From: Minisyncoccota bacterium
GTDB taxonomy: Bacteria; Patescibacteriota; Minisyncoccia; Phycocordibacterales; Phycocordibacteraceae
DNA length: 64,000 nt
Reading direction: 5' to 3'
Assembly: GCA_041663025.1 (NCBI GenBank)
Contig: JBAZRE010000001.1
Coordinates: 71,585 to 135,584, forward strand
A program made the position numbers and the translations under genes. Shown here piece after piece: positions 5,155 through 22,524 of this stretch; the first letter of the stretch is position 1; every line of letters begins with the position of its first letter. Under the pieces are notes generated by a model that saw only the letters and a list, made by a program, of their open reading frames with translations, was not told the DNA's origin and made no database searches.

Positions 5155-5184
5155 ATGATACCCCCCAGGGGTATCATCCGTCAA
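5155..5184 (-). promoter_or_regulatory. Putative sigma70-type promoter of the csoR-copA operon (TTGACG-N18-TATCAT); likely leaderless transcript
   Basis: Minus-strand -35 at 5184..5179 and -10 at 5160..5155. The predicted TSS falls at about the A of the csoR ATG (5148). Confidence 0.4.
5157..5175. promoter_or_regulatory. CsoR operator: perfect inverted repeat GATACCCC-cca-GGGGTATC
   Basis: An 8 bp perfect palindrome of the TACCC/GGGTA type, as bound by CsoR-family repressors. It overlaps the -10 element and is immediately upstream of csoR. Confidence 0.6.
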
Positions 5185-5190
5185 GCCGTC

Positions 5191-5218
5191 TACTTGTGAA
5201 CAACAGAAAACCGCCTTC
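5191..5218 (-). terminator. Intrinsic terminator after tRNA-fMet (hairpin CCGCC-agaa-GGCGG followed by a U-run)
   Basis: Plus-strand sequence aaaaccgccttctggcggtttt; on the minus strand the hairpin is followed by UUUUCUGUUG. Confidence 0.5.
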
Positions 5219-5238
5219 TGGCGGTTTTCTGTATTACG

Positions 5239-5523
5239 TGGTTGCGGGGGTCGGAATTGAACCGACGTCTGGAGGTTATGCTTACCACTACAATTTTCAT
5301 TGCCCTTTGGTTTGTGGTCTGGACTATGCCTTCATCCGCCAACTGGTGGATGTCTACCGTCTAGTCTCTACACCTTTTCCGCCGAAAGCGGAACTTGGCT
5401 CGGTGTTGCCTTTTGCTATTCGCAAGAGGGGTTCGCCGAATTTGGCAGATGATCTTATGCGCAATTGCTCGCGCACACGCCCGAATACTCAAGCCTCCCG
5501 AGGTACCTCTCCTCTACCCCGCT
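5239..5523 (-). tRNA. Initiator tRNA-fMet(CAU) interrupted by a 211 nt group I intron in the anticodon loop
   Basis: The 5' exon (5523..5492) and 3' exon (5280..5239, CCA encoded) fold as a canonical cloverleaf. Initiator hallmarks are present: A11:U24, unpaired 1:72, anticodon loop CUCAUAA. The 3' half is nearly identical to E. coli tRNA-fMet. Confidence 0.75.
5281..5491 (-). ncRNA. Group I intron (no ORF) inserted after U33 of tRNA-fMet
   Basis: The intron follows an exon U and ends with G (omega-G). P1 can form from exon GCU plus intron UGA paired with the IGS UCGGGC, giving a splice-site U:G wobble. R/S-like elements GAGACUAG and CAUAGUCC could form P7. Confidence 0.6.
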
Positions 5524-5528
5524 CCTAT

Positions 5529-5557
5529 AGTTTACTCTTCTGTAATGGAATTGGCTA
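5529..5557 (-). promoter_or_regulatory. Possible promoter of tRNA-fMet (TAGCCA-N17-TAAACT)
   Basis: The -10 TAAACT ends 6 nt before tRNA position 1. The -35 overlaps the stop codon of the upstream gene. Confidence 0.3.
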
Positions 5558-6133
5558 GATGGCCTTCAATTCACGGAAAACATTCTCGTAGTGCGCAATG
5601 GTGCGGCGCGCAAGAGTTTCAGAGAGATCAAAGGCGGATCCTTGGTGTGCAATCTGATTGCGCACCTTGTGCGCCTCCCACGCTTCTTGAAGTGTTTTAA
5701 ACTCTGTTGGCTCAACACTCTTCAATTTCTCGCCAACACCGTCACCTACATATCCATTTTTTGTAAGCAGGTCGTCGAGCATGATATCTGCCTCAATGAT
5801 TGCGTCTCGCCACTCGCTTGTAGTCGCACCGTTAATAAGCGACTCGATATGTTGCCAGCGCAGATTTGTTCCACCAATAGCATCAGGCGCGAGAATGACC
5901 GTGCTGTAATACTTTTCTTCACGCGCACGCAATTCGAAGATCCGTATGGTGCAATACACAATAATAAAGAGCCCAATAACTGCGAGCGCGTAACCGATGA
6001 TGACGATCCAGATCCAAAGATGTGCGAGCCACGCTGAGAGTCCAGTTAGTCCTGGCGACCCATAACACGTGCCACGTAGACAATCGTAAAGGAGACGGTA
6101 CCAGAATTCGACATTGAGCTGATTCGCCGGCAT
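5555..6133 (-). CDS. Hypothetical membrane-anchored protein with C-terminal HEPN-like Rx4H motifs (VRNQIAH, RRTIAH)
   Basis: The product has a 32-residue hydrophobic segment (1-2 TM) followed by an alpha-helical C-terminal domain ending in RN-x3-H, as in HepT/Abi HEPN RNases. No partner gene is present. Confidence 0.5.
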   Translation of the reverse strand: MPANQLNVEFWYRLLYDCLRGTCYGSPGLTGLSAWLAHLWIWIVIIGYALAVIGLFIIVYCTIRIFELRAREEKYYSTVILAPDAIGGTNLRWQHIESLINGATTSEWRDAIIEADIMLDDLLTKNGYVGDGVGEKLKSVEPTEFKTLQEAWEAHKVRNQIAHQGSAFDLSETLARRTIAHYENVFRELKAI

Positions 6134-6139
6134 GTGCGT

Positions 6140-7558
6140 TTATTGTAGCGCGGATCCGGCAGTGAAAAGCGAGTTTTCCGCCTGGTGCGGGGCGGTGATG
6201 TGAATGCCAACCGGGAGCTGCTTCCCTTCCCTTTCTACCGTGCCCATCGGGACAGAGATCGCCGGCATGCCAGTAAGATTTGCAGTCACGGTGAAGATAT
6301 CTTCAAGATACATTGAGAGCGGATCATTCTTATCGCCAAACTTGAATGCTGGAGATGGCGTTGTTGGGAAAGCGATGACATCGCATGATTCAAACGCTTT
6401 TTCGTATTCGCGACGCAACACAGCGCGTGCCGTGTCCGCTTTATAGTAATACGCATCAATATAACCAGAAGAGAGCACGAACGTGCCTAGCAAGATACGT
6501 CGACGCGTTTCTTCACCAAAGCCCTCGGTGCGCGAATTAATATAATCATCAAGGAGAGTCTCCCCACGCGCCGCATGCCCGTAGCGCATGCCATCGAGTC
6601 GTGCGAGATTTGTTGAGACTTCTGCAGGCATGATGACGTAGTATGCCGCGAGCGCAGTGGTGCTCATGGGCAGTTTGATCTCTATAATCTCATGCCCTGC
6701 TTGTGTAAGTTTATCGAGCACCGTATCGAATGCGGCGAGCACATCTTTATCAACGCCCTCGCCAAGTAGATGATAAGGAACTCCTATACGAAGGTGTTTG
6801 GAGATTTTATGCACACCATACAATCCATTTGGAATGGTTGTGGAGTCGAGTGCATCTTTACCGCTAATTGCATCATGGATAATGCGCGCATCAGTAATCG
6901 ATTTAGCCAAAGGACCGATTTGATCAAGCGAGGAGCCCATCGCAATAAGTCCATAGCGCGAGACTGCACCATACGTTGGTTTAAGACCAACAATACCGCA
7001 ATGAGCTGCCGGCTGACGTACTGAACCACCCGTATCACTGCCCAGAGCTGCAATACAAAGATGTGCGGCCACTGCAGCGGCAGAGCCTCCCGAAGAGCCG
7101 CCTGGCACACGCGAAATATCATGTGGATTTTTCGTTGGGCCGAAGGCCGAATGTTCGGTTGATGAACCCATCGCAAACTCGTCCATGTTGGTACGACCGA
7201 GAAATAATGCGCCGGCTTCTTTTAATTTTTTAATAACCGTTGCGTCATAGGTCGCGCGATAATTCTCAAGCATCTTAGACGCGGCGCTCGCAATCTTCCC
7301 TTCTATCAGAATGTTGTCTTTAATTGCGAGCGGAATGCCGCAAAGAAGTTGGGCTGATTCGCCTTCAGTATCAATGCGTTTTTGCGCTGATTCAATAGCC
7401 GCATCATCTGCTTCAAAAATTTCAAGATATGCGTGCAGTTCTGGATTCTTCTCGTGCGCGGCAGCCGCGCACGCATCCCAGAGCTCACGTACTGAGCATT
7501 CCCGCGCGCGGAGCGCGCGGGCAGCTTCTACGATCGTCATTTCATTTAATTTAGTCAT
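6140..7558 (-). CDS. gatA: Glu/Asp-tRNA amidotransferase subunit A (amidase signature family)
   Basis: Amidase signature GGSSGGSAAAVAA and a Ser-cisSer-Lys context. The start was set at MTKLNEMTIVEAARAL so that it overlaps the gatC stop by 8 nt. Confidence 0.9.
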   Translation of the reverse strand: MTKLNEMTIVEAARALRARECSVRELWDACAAAAHEKNPELHAYLEIFEADDAAIESAQKRIDTEGESAQLLCGIPLAIKDNILIEGKIASAASKMLENYRATYDATVIKKLKEAGALFLGRTNMDEFAMGSSTEHSAFGPTKNPHDISRVPGGSSGGSAAAVAAHLCIAALGSDTGGSVRQPAAHCGIVGLKPTYGAVSRYGLIAMGSSLDQIGPLAKSITDARIIHDAISGKDALDSTTIPNGLYGVHKISKHLRIGVPYHLLGEGVDKDVLAAFDTVLDKLTQAGHEIIEIKLPMSTTALAAYYVIMPAEVSTNLARLDGMRYGHAARGETLLDDYINSRTEGFGEETRRRILLGTFVLSSGYIDAYYYKADTARAVLRREYEKAFESCDVIAFPTTPSPAFKFGDKNDPLSMYLEDIFTVTANLTGMPAISVPMGTVEREGKQLPVGIHITAPHQAENSLFTAGSALQ

Positions 7559-7844
7559 GCTGGATGATCTGTTTGACCGAGAGTGCGTCGCCTTCGCGCG
7601 AGGGAAACTGCTCAGCAAGCTTCTCAGTGTAGGCATGTGCTTGGTGTGGCTCGCCATCCACACGCATCACATTGCGTAATACAGGAGGCAGGATGCAGGA
7701 TGCAGGATGCAGGTCTAGCGTCTCGAGTTGTCCGATATACGAGAGTATCGCGTCAAATTCGTTCGTGAATTTCTCGAGTTCTGTATCCTCCACTCGTATC
7801 CGCGCGAGCGCTGCGAGCTTTTTAACGTCTTCTGTCGTCGCCAT
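7551..7844 (-). CDS. gatC: Glu/Asp-tRNA amidotransferase subunit C
   Basis: 97 aa, beginning MATTEDVKKLAALARIRVEDTELEKFTNEFDAILSYIGQL, typical of GatC. It is translationally coupled to gatA. Confidence 0.85.
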   Translation of the reverse strand: MATTEDVKKLAALARIRVEDTELEKFTNEFDAILSYIGQLETLDLHPASCILPPVLRNVMRVDGEPHQAHAYTEKLAEQFPSREGDALSVKQIIQHD

Positions 7845-9881: not shown

Positions 9882-10343
9882 TCAGTACACGGAGCTGATA
9901 CCGCGTGATACGAAGCGCGCTCCACCAGGAGTCTCCACCGTGCCACACGGAACATCATATCCTTGTGAGAACATGTAGGTCGTCCCTGAAACATTTTTAT
10001 AGATTGTTATGTCTGCGCAACGAGCACCGTCACCAAGTGACAACCGTGATTTATAAATGACGTTTGACGCATCAGTGCTACTGGCGATTCCAAACTGACT
10101 ACCACCACAGAATAATTCCATCCCTCCACCAGATTTAAAACGATCACTCACATAGTCTTCATAGAGTGCACACTCAATACCGGCATCGGCAGCATAAAAT
10201 GCCTGTTGCGATTCGATAGCCGCAGAGGCGAGCAGTTGCTGTTTATACCCAAGCGAGCTAATCGAGAGACCGAGTGCCAGCATAACTGACATAAAAATGA
10301 CGGAAATCAGAAGTGCAAACCCTCTGTTATGTTTGTTTTTCAT
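9882..10343 (-). CDS. Minor pseudopilin (prepilin-type N-terminus RG|FALLISV, no Glu5)
   Basis: A class III signal-like N-terminus followed by a hydrophobic helix. First gene of a run of four pseudopilin genes. Confidence 0.55.
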   Translation of the reverse strand: MKNKHNRGFALLISVIFMSVMLALGLSISSLGYKQQLLASAAIESQQAFYAADAGIECALYEDYVSDRFKSGGGMELFCGGSQFGIASSTDASNVIYKSRLSLGDGARCADITIYKNVSGTTYMFSQGYDVPCGTVETPGGARFVSRGISSVY

Positions 10344-22432: not shown

Positions 22433-22521
22433 GGAGGGGTCGCATAGAGGCCTAGTGCGGCGGGTTGCTAACTCGCTATACGAGTAATATCGTATCGAGG
22501 GTTCGAATCCCTCCCCCTCCG
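22433..22521 (+). tRNA. tRNA-Ser(GCU), type II with long variable arm
   Basis: Acceptor GGAGGGG/CCCCTCC; anticodon stem GCGGG/CTCGC with loop TTGCTAA; a 6 bp variable-arm stem; T-arm GAGGG-TTCGAAT-CCCTC; discriminator G. Confidence 0.85.
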
Positions 22522-22524
22522 CAA

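Follow-up and report, generated by a model that had tools for sequence, protein, structure and literature searches.

Known tRNA introns and the closest described systems

[quoted passage not shown] 2026, who report 333 intron-containing tRNAs from 18 phyla across 4,934 complete genomes (PMC13011429). Introns of subgroup IC make up 81% of bacterial tRNA introns, and the well-characterised insertion sites are 33/34 in tRNA-fMet, 34/35 in tRNA-Leu and 36/37 in tRNA-Arg (PMC13011429). The tables of that survey list IC3 introns at 33/34 of tRNA-fMet for Bacteroidota, as well as Met(CAU) 33/34 introns between initiator-like exons in two Microgenomatia (Patescibacteria) genomes (PMC13011429). Its main text places none of the Patescibacteria tRNA introns in IC, the absence of IC3 from the tRNA genes of this phylum being given there for 95 complete genomes (PMC13011429). 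In Synechocystis PCC 6803 the tRNA-fMet intron is 655 nt long and encodes the PD-(D/E)XK homing endonuclease I-Ssp6803I (U10482; PMC1995217).

The stretch of DNA analysed here, which we call the window, is 64 kb long. The segment 5523..5239 on its minus strand is very probably an initiator tRNA(CAU) gene interrupted between tRNA positions 33 and 34 by an IC3-type group I intron. The host is a Parcubacteria/Paceibacteria-like Patescibacteria bacterium.

For the subgroup comparison the window intron was aligned with subgroup-labelled sequences taken from the supplement of PMC13011429, and a neighbour-joining tree was built. Within that set, core identity is 0.62-0.66 to IC3-labelled Ile2/fMet 33/34 introns of Bacillota_B, Acidobacteriota and Bacteroidota, and 0.50-0.53 to the published Patescibacteria introns, the Microgenomatia Met 33/34 introns included. 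In the tree, a rough one drawn from the same labelled references, the window intron falls within the IC3 clade together with the introns of three relatives (L001, L006 and L010), apart from the IA/IB-labelled references. Its P7-P3-P8 region is compact and lacks a P7.1/P7.2 insert, and the 3' domain is of the IC3 style (AGUCCAGACCACAAA...GAAA...GUAGUGGUAAG). On this similarity and the rough tree we assign the intron, with moderate confidence, to the IC3 type.

The nearest counterparts are IC3 introns at 33/34 of bacterial tRNA-fMet and tRNA-Ile2(CAU) genes, such as those of Bacteroidota (GCA_951812585.1, GCF_001988955.1), Bacillota_B (GCF_000018425.1) and Acidobacteriota (GCA_016700075.1), which occupy the same insertion site according to the entries in Table S5 of PMC13011429. 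They share with the window intron the core blocks CAAAUUCGG, CCGAGCCAAG, GUGUAGAGACU and AGUCCAGACCACAAA, the GNRA...GUAGUGGUAAG|CAUAA ending and the compact P7-P3-P8. The window differs from them in its host, a Patescibacteria-type initiator tRNA with A1, A29:U41 and a short D loop, in intron length (211 nt compared with 244-305 nt in the listed references) and in the start of P1, which reads UGA instead of CAA or UAA.

The Synechocystis intron lies in the same host gene, 33/34 being the characteristic tRNA-fMet site (PMC13011429), but the window intron, likened to it by description, has neither ORF nor homing endonuclease and belongs to another phylum. The sequence-only reading had regarded tRNA-fMet introns as classically cyanobacterial and their occurrence here as notable for that reason. 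This view is outdated, as such introns are found in several phyla including Patescibacteria (PMC13011429) and are common in metagenomes. The two Microgenomatia introns (GCA_001029755.1 and GCA_013426185.1, entered in Tables 1 and S3 of PMC13011429) match the window in phylum and site and have an initiator-like host (UGCGGGG...CCCGCAA). However, judged from the sequences supplied with those tables they represent a different lineage, with a core identity of 0.51, another 3' domain and a grouping with IA-like Patescibacteria introns.

The IC3 intron in tRNA-Leu(UAA) at 34/35, found in Anabaena PCC 7120 and many other bacteria, has the overall architecture and conserved core of the window intron, yet its host tRNA is different, its site lies one nucleotide downstream and core identity to the Anabaena sequence is 0.52. 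The structural model system for IC3 is the Azoarcus tRNA-Ile(CAU) intron, which is sited at 36/37, after the CAU. We take it to share with the window intron a size of about 200 nt and GNRA loops on both P2 and P9, and presumably also the blocks CAAAUUCGGCGAA, CCGAGCCAAG and GUGUAGAGACUAGACGG.

Scanning metagenomes for the conserved P7 motif returned at least 120 DNA stretches. tRNA-Leu(UAA) at 34/35 is the majority host among the matches listed, while initiator-type tRNA(CAU) interrupted at 33/34 occurs at no fewer than 15 loci, many having the same Patescibacteria-like exons; the other hosts among the matches listed are Ile2-type tRNA(CAU) at 33/34, Thr(UGU) and Arg(UCU) at 34/35 and Arg(CCU) at 36/37. 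The P7 motif is abundant in IMG/VR viral contigs as well, with the tRNA-Leu type accounting for 92 of 120 sampled. No initiator-type tRNA host was present among those 120 viral contigs, and a phage route for the window insertion is thus without support.

Layout of the interrupted gene

Coordinates of the gene, its exons and the intron helices are collected in Table 1. The 5' exon supplies its share of the acceptor stem, the D arm, the 5' strand of the anticodon stem, C32 and U33. The 3' exon begins with the anticodon CAU, followed by A37, A38, the 3' strand of the anticodon stem, the variable loop, the T arm, the 3' strand of the acceptor, A73 and CCA. When spliced in silico the exons give a 74-nt tRNA(CAU) cloverleaf in ARAGORN. 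By manual reading, a single boundary, GGCU|...G|CAUAA, gives a 7-nt loop with U as the last nucleotide of the exon and G as the last of the intron. The exon and intron coordinates of the sequence-only reading were all right, as were its assembly of the exons into a tRNA, which ARAGORN folds, and its placement of the insertion after an exon U (U33) with an omega-G as last intron nucleotide.

Table 1. Features of the interrupted tRNA gene in the window, and the state of the gatA-linked tRNA gene in relatives
Feature	Position or locus	Strand	Details
Initiator tRNA(CAU) gene (very probable), whole	5239..5523	-	285 nt; mature product 74 nt, CCA encoded
5' exon	5523..5492	-	AGCGGGGUAGAGGAGAGGUACCUCGGGAGGCU; 32 nt; tRNA positions 1-33
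Intron	5491..5281	-	211 nt; group I, IC3-like, without ORF
3' exon	5280..5239	-	CAUAACCUCCAGACGUCGGUUCAAUUCCGACCCCCGCAACCA; 42 nt; terminal CCA
P1	5494..5479	-	exon G31-C32-U33 and intron U1-G2-A3 with guide UCGGGC; loop GUAU; Rfam and R1 alignments
P2 hairpin, GCAA (GNRA) tetraloop	5475..5458	-	7/7 pairs with compensatory changes; RNAalifold de novo
P3 5' strand UCUGCC	5449..5444	-	with 5358..5353; 99.2% of cells paired, double changes at 4/6 pairs
P4 (UCGGCG / CACCGA), encloses P5	5439..5434 with 5405..5400	-	whole span 5400..5439
P5	5429..5409	-	
P6 and P6a	5399..5372	-	6/6 P6a pairs covary; RNAalifold de novo
P7 5' strand GACUA	5366..5362	-	guanosine-binding helix, pseudoknotted with P3; read in sequence
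P3 3' strand GGUAGA	5358..5353	-	partner of 5449..5444
P8 hairpin, one A·C mismatch	5351..5334	-	6/7 pairs covary; RNAalifold de novo
J8/7 GAAGGCA	5333..5327	-	directly before P7 3' strand
P7 3' strand UAGUC	5326..5322	-	agrees with Rfam consensus AUAGUC
P9 domain	5318..5284	-	stem ACCAC/GUGGU, CC-AAA-GG hairpin, CAAU-GAAA-AUUG hairpin with GAAA tetraloop
omega-G, last intron nucleotide, 3' splice site	5281	-	G in 22/22 homologues, right before CAUAA
Terminator-like hairpin	5232..5203	-	6 nt after tRNA; 13-bp stem, then UGUUGUU; -22 kcal/mol, z = -7.7 (folding)
tRNA downstream of gatA, same intron and site	L001, L006, L010		Rfam 58.6, 69.8 and 61.6 bits, respectively
tRNA downstream of gatA, different intron	L008		group I intron of about 262 nt after U36 (36/37)
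tRNA downstream of gatA, uninterrupted	L002, L005, L020, L004, L012, L014, L003, L011, L013, L019		at least 10 loci

The locus is easily overlooked. ARAGORN under default settings and an Rfam scan at the gathering threshold both return nothing there, each yielding in the whole window only a tRNA-Ser at 22433-22522; detection needed a sensitive, region-limited E-value Rfam scan, or the intron mode of ARAGORN, with which the split gene is found at c[5239,5523]. No homing endonuclease ORF is present in the 211-nt intron, which is overlapped solely by chance ORFs of 40-50 aa, and the intron structure leaves no space for such an ORF.

Evidence that the insertion is a group I intron

The Rfam model Intron_gpI (RF00028) aligns over its full length (1-253) to 5501..5288, with an E-value of 4.6e-10 when calculated for the region and of 4.9e-8 when calculated over all 64 kb of the window, and it is the window's only group I signal. 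The score is 44.4 bits against a gathering cut-off of 50; the Rfam check proposed in the sequence-only reading thus gave a full-length match below the threshold. Applied to the same intron in the three relatives the model scores above the cut-off in every case (Table 1). A covariance model, R1, was trained on 12 homologous introns, a set from which the window and its two nearest relatives (L001 and L082) were excluded. This model gave a single match in the window, full length, at 5501..5271 with 186.6 bits and E~5e-48, the E-value being rough owing to a short calibration; L001 scored similarly at 184.9 bits.

Covariation was assessed in a MAFFT alignment of 22 CAU 33/34 introns carrying the P1-P9 structure drawn in this analysis. 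Across these introns 90.7% of P1-P9 cells are paired, compared with 32-41% in slid controls whose partners are displaced by 1-3 columns, 38 pairs show double changes, and the covariation score is 0.436 compared with about 0.09 in the slid controls. None of 500 shuffles reached any observed covariation measure. P7 does not vary in this set, since the search pattern included it, and is uninformative for covariation. From the alignment without the window, RNAalifold recovered the exon-exon anticodon stem, P1, P2, P3, P4, P5, P6a, P8 and both P9 hairpins, with 40 of 61 pairs kept through double changes. The group I intron of the sequence-only reading is thereby borne out by the full-length RF00028 match, the R1 score and the pairing excess over the slid controls.

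At the 5' splice site U33 forms a wobble with G11 in P1, a U·G in 22/22 homologues whose flanking pairs covary. The P1 drawn in the sequence-only reading (GCU|UGA-GUAU-UCGGGC, with its splice-site U:G) is present and was aligned in the same way by Rfam and R1, and both of its candidate P7 strands, GACUA at 5366..5362 and UAGUC at 5326..5322, lie where expected. Four of the five pairs in the P9 GAAA hairpin covary, and the 3' domain is the same as in the IC3 references.

Relatives with and without the intron

The gene for GatA lies at 6140..7663 on the minus strand, 617 bp upstream of the tRNA gene. Best matches to GatA come from Patescibacteria MAGs (Parcubacteria/Paceibacterota), with a maximum of 74% in L001, and the window is collinear with L001 over more than 13 kb at approximately 75-78% amino-acid identity. 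In relatives gatA is the conserved neighbour of the tRNA, and this linkage allowed orthologous tRNA genes to be compared directly (Table 1). They fall into genes with the same intron, one with a different intron and genes with none, a patchy distribution among the gatA-linked relatives. In two of the intron-less genes (L002 and L005) the 5' exon part matches that of the window exactly, the sequence at the junction reads GGCU|CAUAACC, and the T stem carries compensatory changes. The presence/absence series among relatives fixes the splice junction as GGCU|CAUAACC. In L006 and L010 second, weak group I matches were seen, which are tRNA-Asp 35/36 introns unrelated to the initiator intron.

Integrity of the window copy

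An intron that is real by descent might have lost splicing, leaving a tRNA pseudogene in a genome whose uninterrupted initiator tRNA lies elsewhere; the visible part of this genome is 64 kb. The Rfam score of 44.4 bits, under the cut-off of 50, could be taken in that sense, but by R1 the window copy scores like that of L001. Several pairing defects point the same way, namely the A·C mismatch in P8, a P10 with the 3' exon that is weak in the window variant by manual pairing (C34-G10 only), and a C57·A88 mismatch in P4 (5435/5404) that is unique to the window copy among the 22 introns. At large, though, the window deviates at just 1 of the 100 columns that are at least 85% conserved in the other 21 sequences, and most homologues deviate more; the single deviating column is C87, where a G·U becomes a G-C pair. 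The P4 column reads UA in 12 of the other introns, GC in 4, UG in 3 and AU in 2. C·A+ is isosteric with the U·G wobble. Because U·G is tolerated at this same pair and C·A+ has the same geometry, C57·A88 is read as a halfway state between U-A and C-G rather than as decay.

The exons are intact and agree with those of the intron-less orthologues. Patescibacteria genomes are small (0.5-1.5 Mbp, PMC13011429), which would make a spare initiator gene unlikely. On balance we consider a pseudogene quite unlikely and favour an intact interrupted gene.

Initiator identity of the tRNA

The ARAGORN cloverleaf of the joined exons has an A1·A72 mismatch at 1:72 in place of a Watson-Crick pair. The D stem contains A11:U24 and the anticodon loop is CUCAUAA, so that each of the initiator hallmarks listed in the sequence-only reading is present. 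Two of the three canonical initiator G:C pairs occur in the anticodon stem, which reads A29:U41, G30:C40 and G31:C39. A29:U41 is common to all Patescibacteria orthologues examined, with or without the intron, and is therefore a lineage trait, not damage to the window copy.

Identity to E. coli metY is 80.3% overall, with 24 of 34 positions agreeing in the 5' half compared with 37 of 43 in the 3' half; the description of the 3' half as nearly identical to E. coli tRNA-fMet was too strong. The best E. coli match lies between argG and rimP and is a tRNA-Met gene that we take to be metY, an initiator tRNA gene; there are four matching places per genome, the known copy number of initiator genes.

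It is very improbable that the gene encodes some other tRNA, be it tRNA-Ser(UGA) or an elongator Met or Ile2 (lysidine) tRNA(CAU). A serine identity is what ARAGORN with the -i option reports, as the tRNA finder run in intron mode found the split gene but labelled it Ser(tga), setting the intron 3 nt further downstream. This boundary would make the exon end in A and the intron in U, contrary to what group I chemistry requires, and the variable loop is short with no long variable arm; the label was rejected as an artefact of the program's fixed intron position. As to the other two, the CAU anticodon cannot by itself tell fMet, Met and Ile2 apart and the initiator G:C pairs number two out of three. 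Against them stand the 1:72 mismatch together with A11:U24, the CUCAUAA loop read in intron-less orthologues, the matches at four places in E. coli, of which the one examined lies between argG and rimP, and a second, different tRNA(CAU) without initiator marks that is found nearby in relatives.

A chance resemblance to group I, with the 211 nt being some other structured RNA or insertion (tmRNA-like, a group II intron or a mobile-element scar), has a negligible probability: the tmRNA match overlapping the 3' exon was rejected, as its 13.7 bits fall far under the cut-off of 47 and are confined to the tRNA-like 3' half, whereas the group I model aligned end to end, every group I helix other than the invariant P7 is backed by covariation, and the same element sits in the anticodon loops of other tRNAs, always after an exon U and ending in G, so that the covariation, RNAalifold and R1 results effectively refute this reading. 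Because the Rfam match, the family model, covariation, intron homologues in relatives and intron-less orthologues all bear on it, we judge the core interpretation, an initiator tRNA(CAU) gene with a group I intron at 33/34, to be correct as far as sequence comparison can tell.

Predicted splicing and transcription context

The 211-nt intron is probably self-splicing. From its family membership and established group I chemistry, a guanosine-initiated, two-step reaction that restores the anticodon loop may be proposed. The minus-strand precursor would be transcribed up to the hairpin at 5232..5203, and its exons would fold into the body of the tRNA, anticodon stem included. The intron would fold into P1-P9, the guide UCGGGC pairing with exon G31-C32-U33 to give the U33·G wobble. 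Exogenous guanosine bound in P7 would then attack after U33, following which the terminal G211 would take the same P7 site and the free 3'-OH of U33 would attack after G211. Joining of the exons would restore the CUCAUAA loop and release a 74-nt tRNA with its encoded CCA. Splicing has been shown for the related Anabaena tRNA-Leu intron and for Patescibacteria introns, which are other sequences than that of the window (PMC13011429).

The terminator-like hairpin downstream of the tRNA was recognised by folding and is not listed by a simple terminator scan. Beyond it a sigma-70-like site (TTGACG-18-TATCAT, 5184..5155) precedes csoR-copA. An exact look-up of the CopA protein matched no recorded entry. 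Because hairpin and promoter-like site lie between them and the tRNA, the copper genes are most likely a separate transcription unit whose proximity to the tRNA is incidental. The position next to a copper operon, which had been thought notable, is thus unrelated to the intron, gatA being the conserved neighbour. Upstream of the tRNA no sigma-70-like promoter passed the scan, and a weak TAGCCA-17-TAAACT was seen by eye only. Since no convincing promoter lies directly upstream, co-transcription of the tRNA with the upstream genes is possible.

Implications

The kind of arrangement described here is already well documented and the finding leaves knowledge of how such introns work unchanged; the only, and modest, new point is the IC3 subgroup in a Patescibacteria tRNA gene. 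It adds an IC3-type tRNA intron to a phylum for which the main text of the only systematic survey reports other subgroups (PMC13011429). For annotation the consequence is practical, as default tRNA finders and the Rfam gathering threshold miss the gene and the genome would appear to be without an initiator tRNA, which flagging the intron fixes.

Two broader readings may be considered, protein-free control of translation initiation and the occurrence of IC3 introns in Patescibacteria tRNA genes. Taken together they are unlikely, the second, more modest one being much more likely than the first. If this were the sole initiator tRNA gene, both the provision of mature initiator tRNA and, through it, the initiation of translation would hinge on how the intron folds and how much guanosine is available, and the intron would act as a protein-free throttle on growth in a minimal-genome bacterium. 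A regulatory role of this kind has been raised as speculation (PMC13011429). If IC3 introns do occur in the tRNA genes of Patescibacteria, their patchiness among close relatives without a homing endonuclease would point to repeated gain or loss, or exchange with other phyla. The relatives with no intron, the same intron or a different one at 36/37 offer a natural series in which such gain and loss without a homing endonuclease may be followed.

Introns in related initiator and aspartate tRNA genes

The split initiator tRNA of locus L008, in a Ca. Parcubacteria MAG, is orthologous to that of the window and has an identical 5' exon. Its group I intron of approximately 262 nt is inserted after U36 (36/37), a site different from the window's, and scores 60.2 bits against Rfam. 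Core identity with the window's intron is only 0.49 and, judged by sequence, the two introns are unrelated. Separate intron invasions have thus struck the same gene at two different sites in related genomes.

Two other Patescibacteria relatives, L006 and L010, carry, about 0.9-1.4 kb away from their split tRNA-fMet, a split tRNA-Asp(GUC) which ARAGORN misses in both loci. The intron is at 35/36, with junctions …GCCUGU|aga…gug|CACGCGAG…, and matches the kind described as typical of Patescibacteria (PMC13011429); Rfam scores for these introns are only 29.9-35.3 bits.

Coordinates of split tRNA genes, metagenome copies and additional window features
Feature	Locus	Position	Strand	Remark
Split initiator tRNA	L008	10716-11052	+	JBEDID010000022.1, Ca. 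Parcubacteria MAG
Split tRNA-Asp(GUC)	L006	5616-5900	+	
Split tRNA-Asp(GUC)	L010	about 9911-10200	+	
Metagenome copy	L101	6641-6891	+	
Metagenome copy	L177	597-843	-	
192-aa ORF	window	5555-6133	-	between gatA and tRNA
Plastid-psbl-rps4 match	window	22468-22521	-	sub-threshold in Rfam; antisense to tRNA-Ser gene

Variation in the 33/34 intron and its host gene

Exons of the metagenome copies L101 and L177 equal those of the window across 10 nt on either side of the intron and match nearly elsewhere, differing near the 5' end (GCGGGUU versus GCGGGGU in the window) and in the T stem. Their introns begin with CAAUAGGGCU, the other P1 variant, rather than the window's UGAGUAUUCGGGC; two intron variants therefore circulate in nearly identical host genes.

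Within P4, the window's C57·A88 (5435 and 5404, minus strand) is the sole non-standard pair there among the 22 aligned homologues. Relative to the Patescibacteria orthologue L001 (U57-A88, G58·U87), the window has changed at two positions, 57 and 87, with C replacing U at each. The window's tRNA gene also encodes a 3' CCA (GCAACCACG, 5239-5244), while its closest orthologues, L001 and L002, have GCAACACG without CCA, a difference of one extra C.

Additional features of the window

The 192-aa ORF has a homologue in L006 and gives no match in Pfam; its N-terminal part looks hydrophobic. The Plastid-psbl-rps4 match (53 bits, cut-off 68) is almost certainly an artefact, because that family contains antisense tRNA-Ser.

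Viral contigs

The exact P7 motif of the window's intron type is found in at least 120 IMG/VR viral contigs (L202-L321). Among the matches listed, hosts are of the tRNA-Leu(UAA) type in 92 of 120 contigs and of the CAUAAU-type tRNA(CAU) in a few. Phage-borne tRNA genes with IC3 introns therefore seem to be common.
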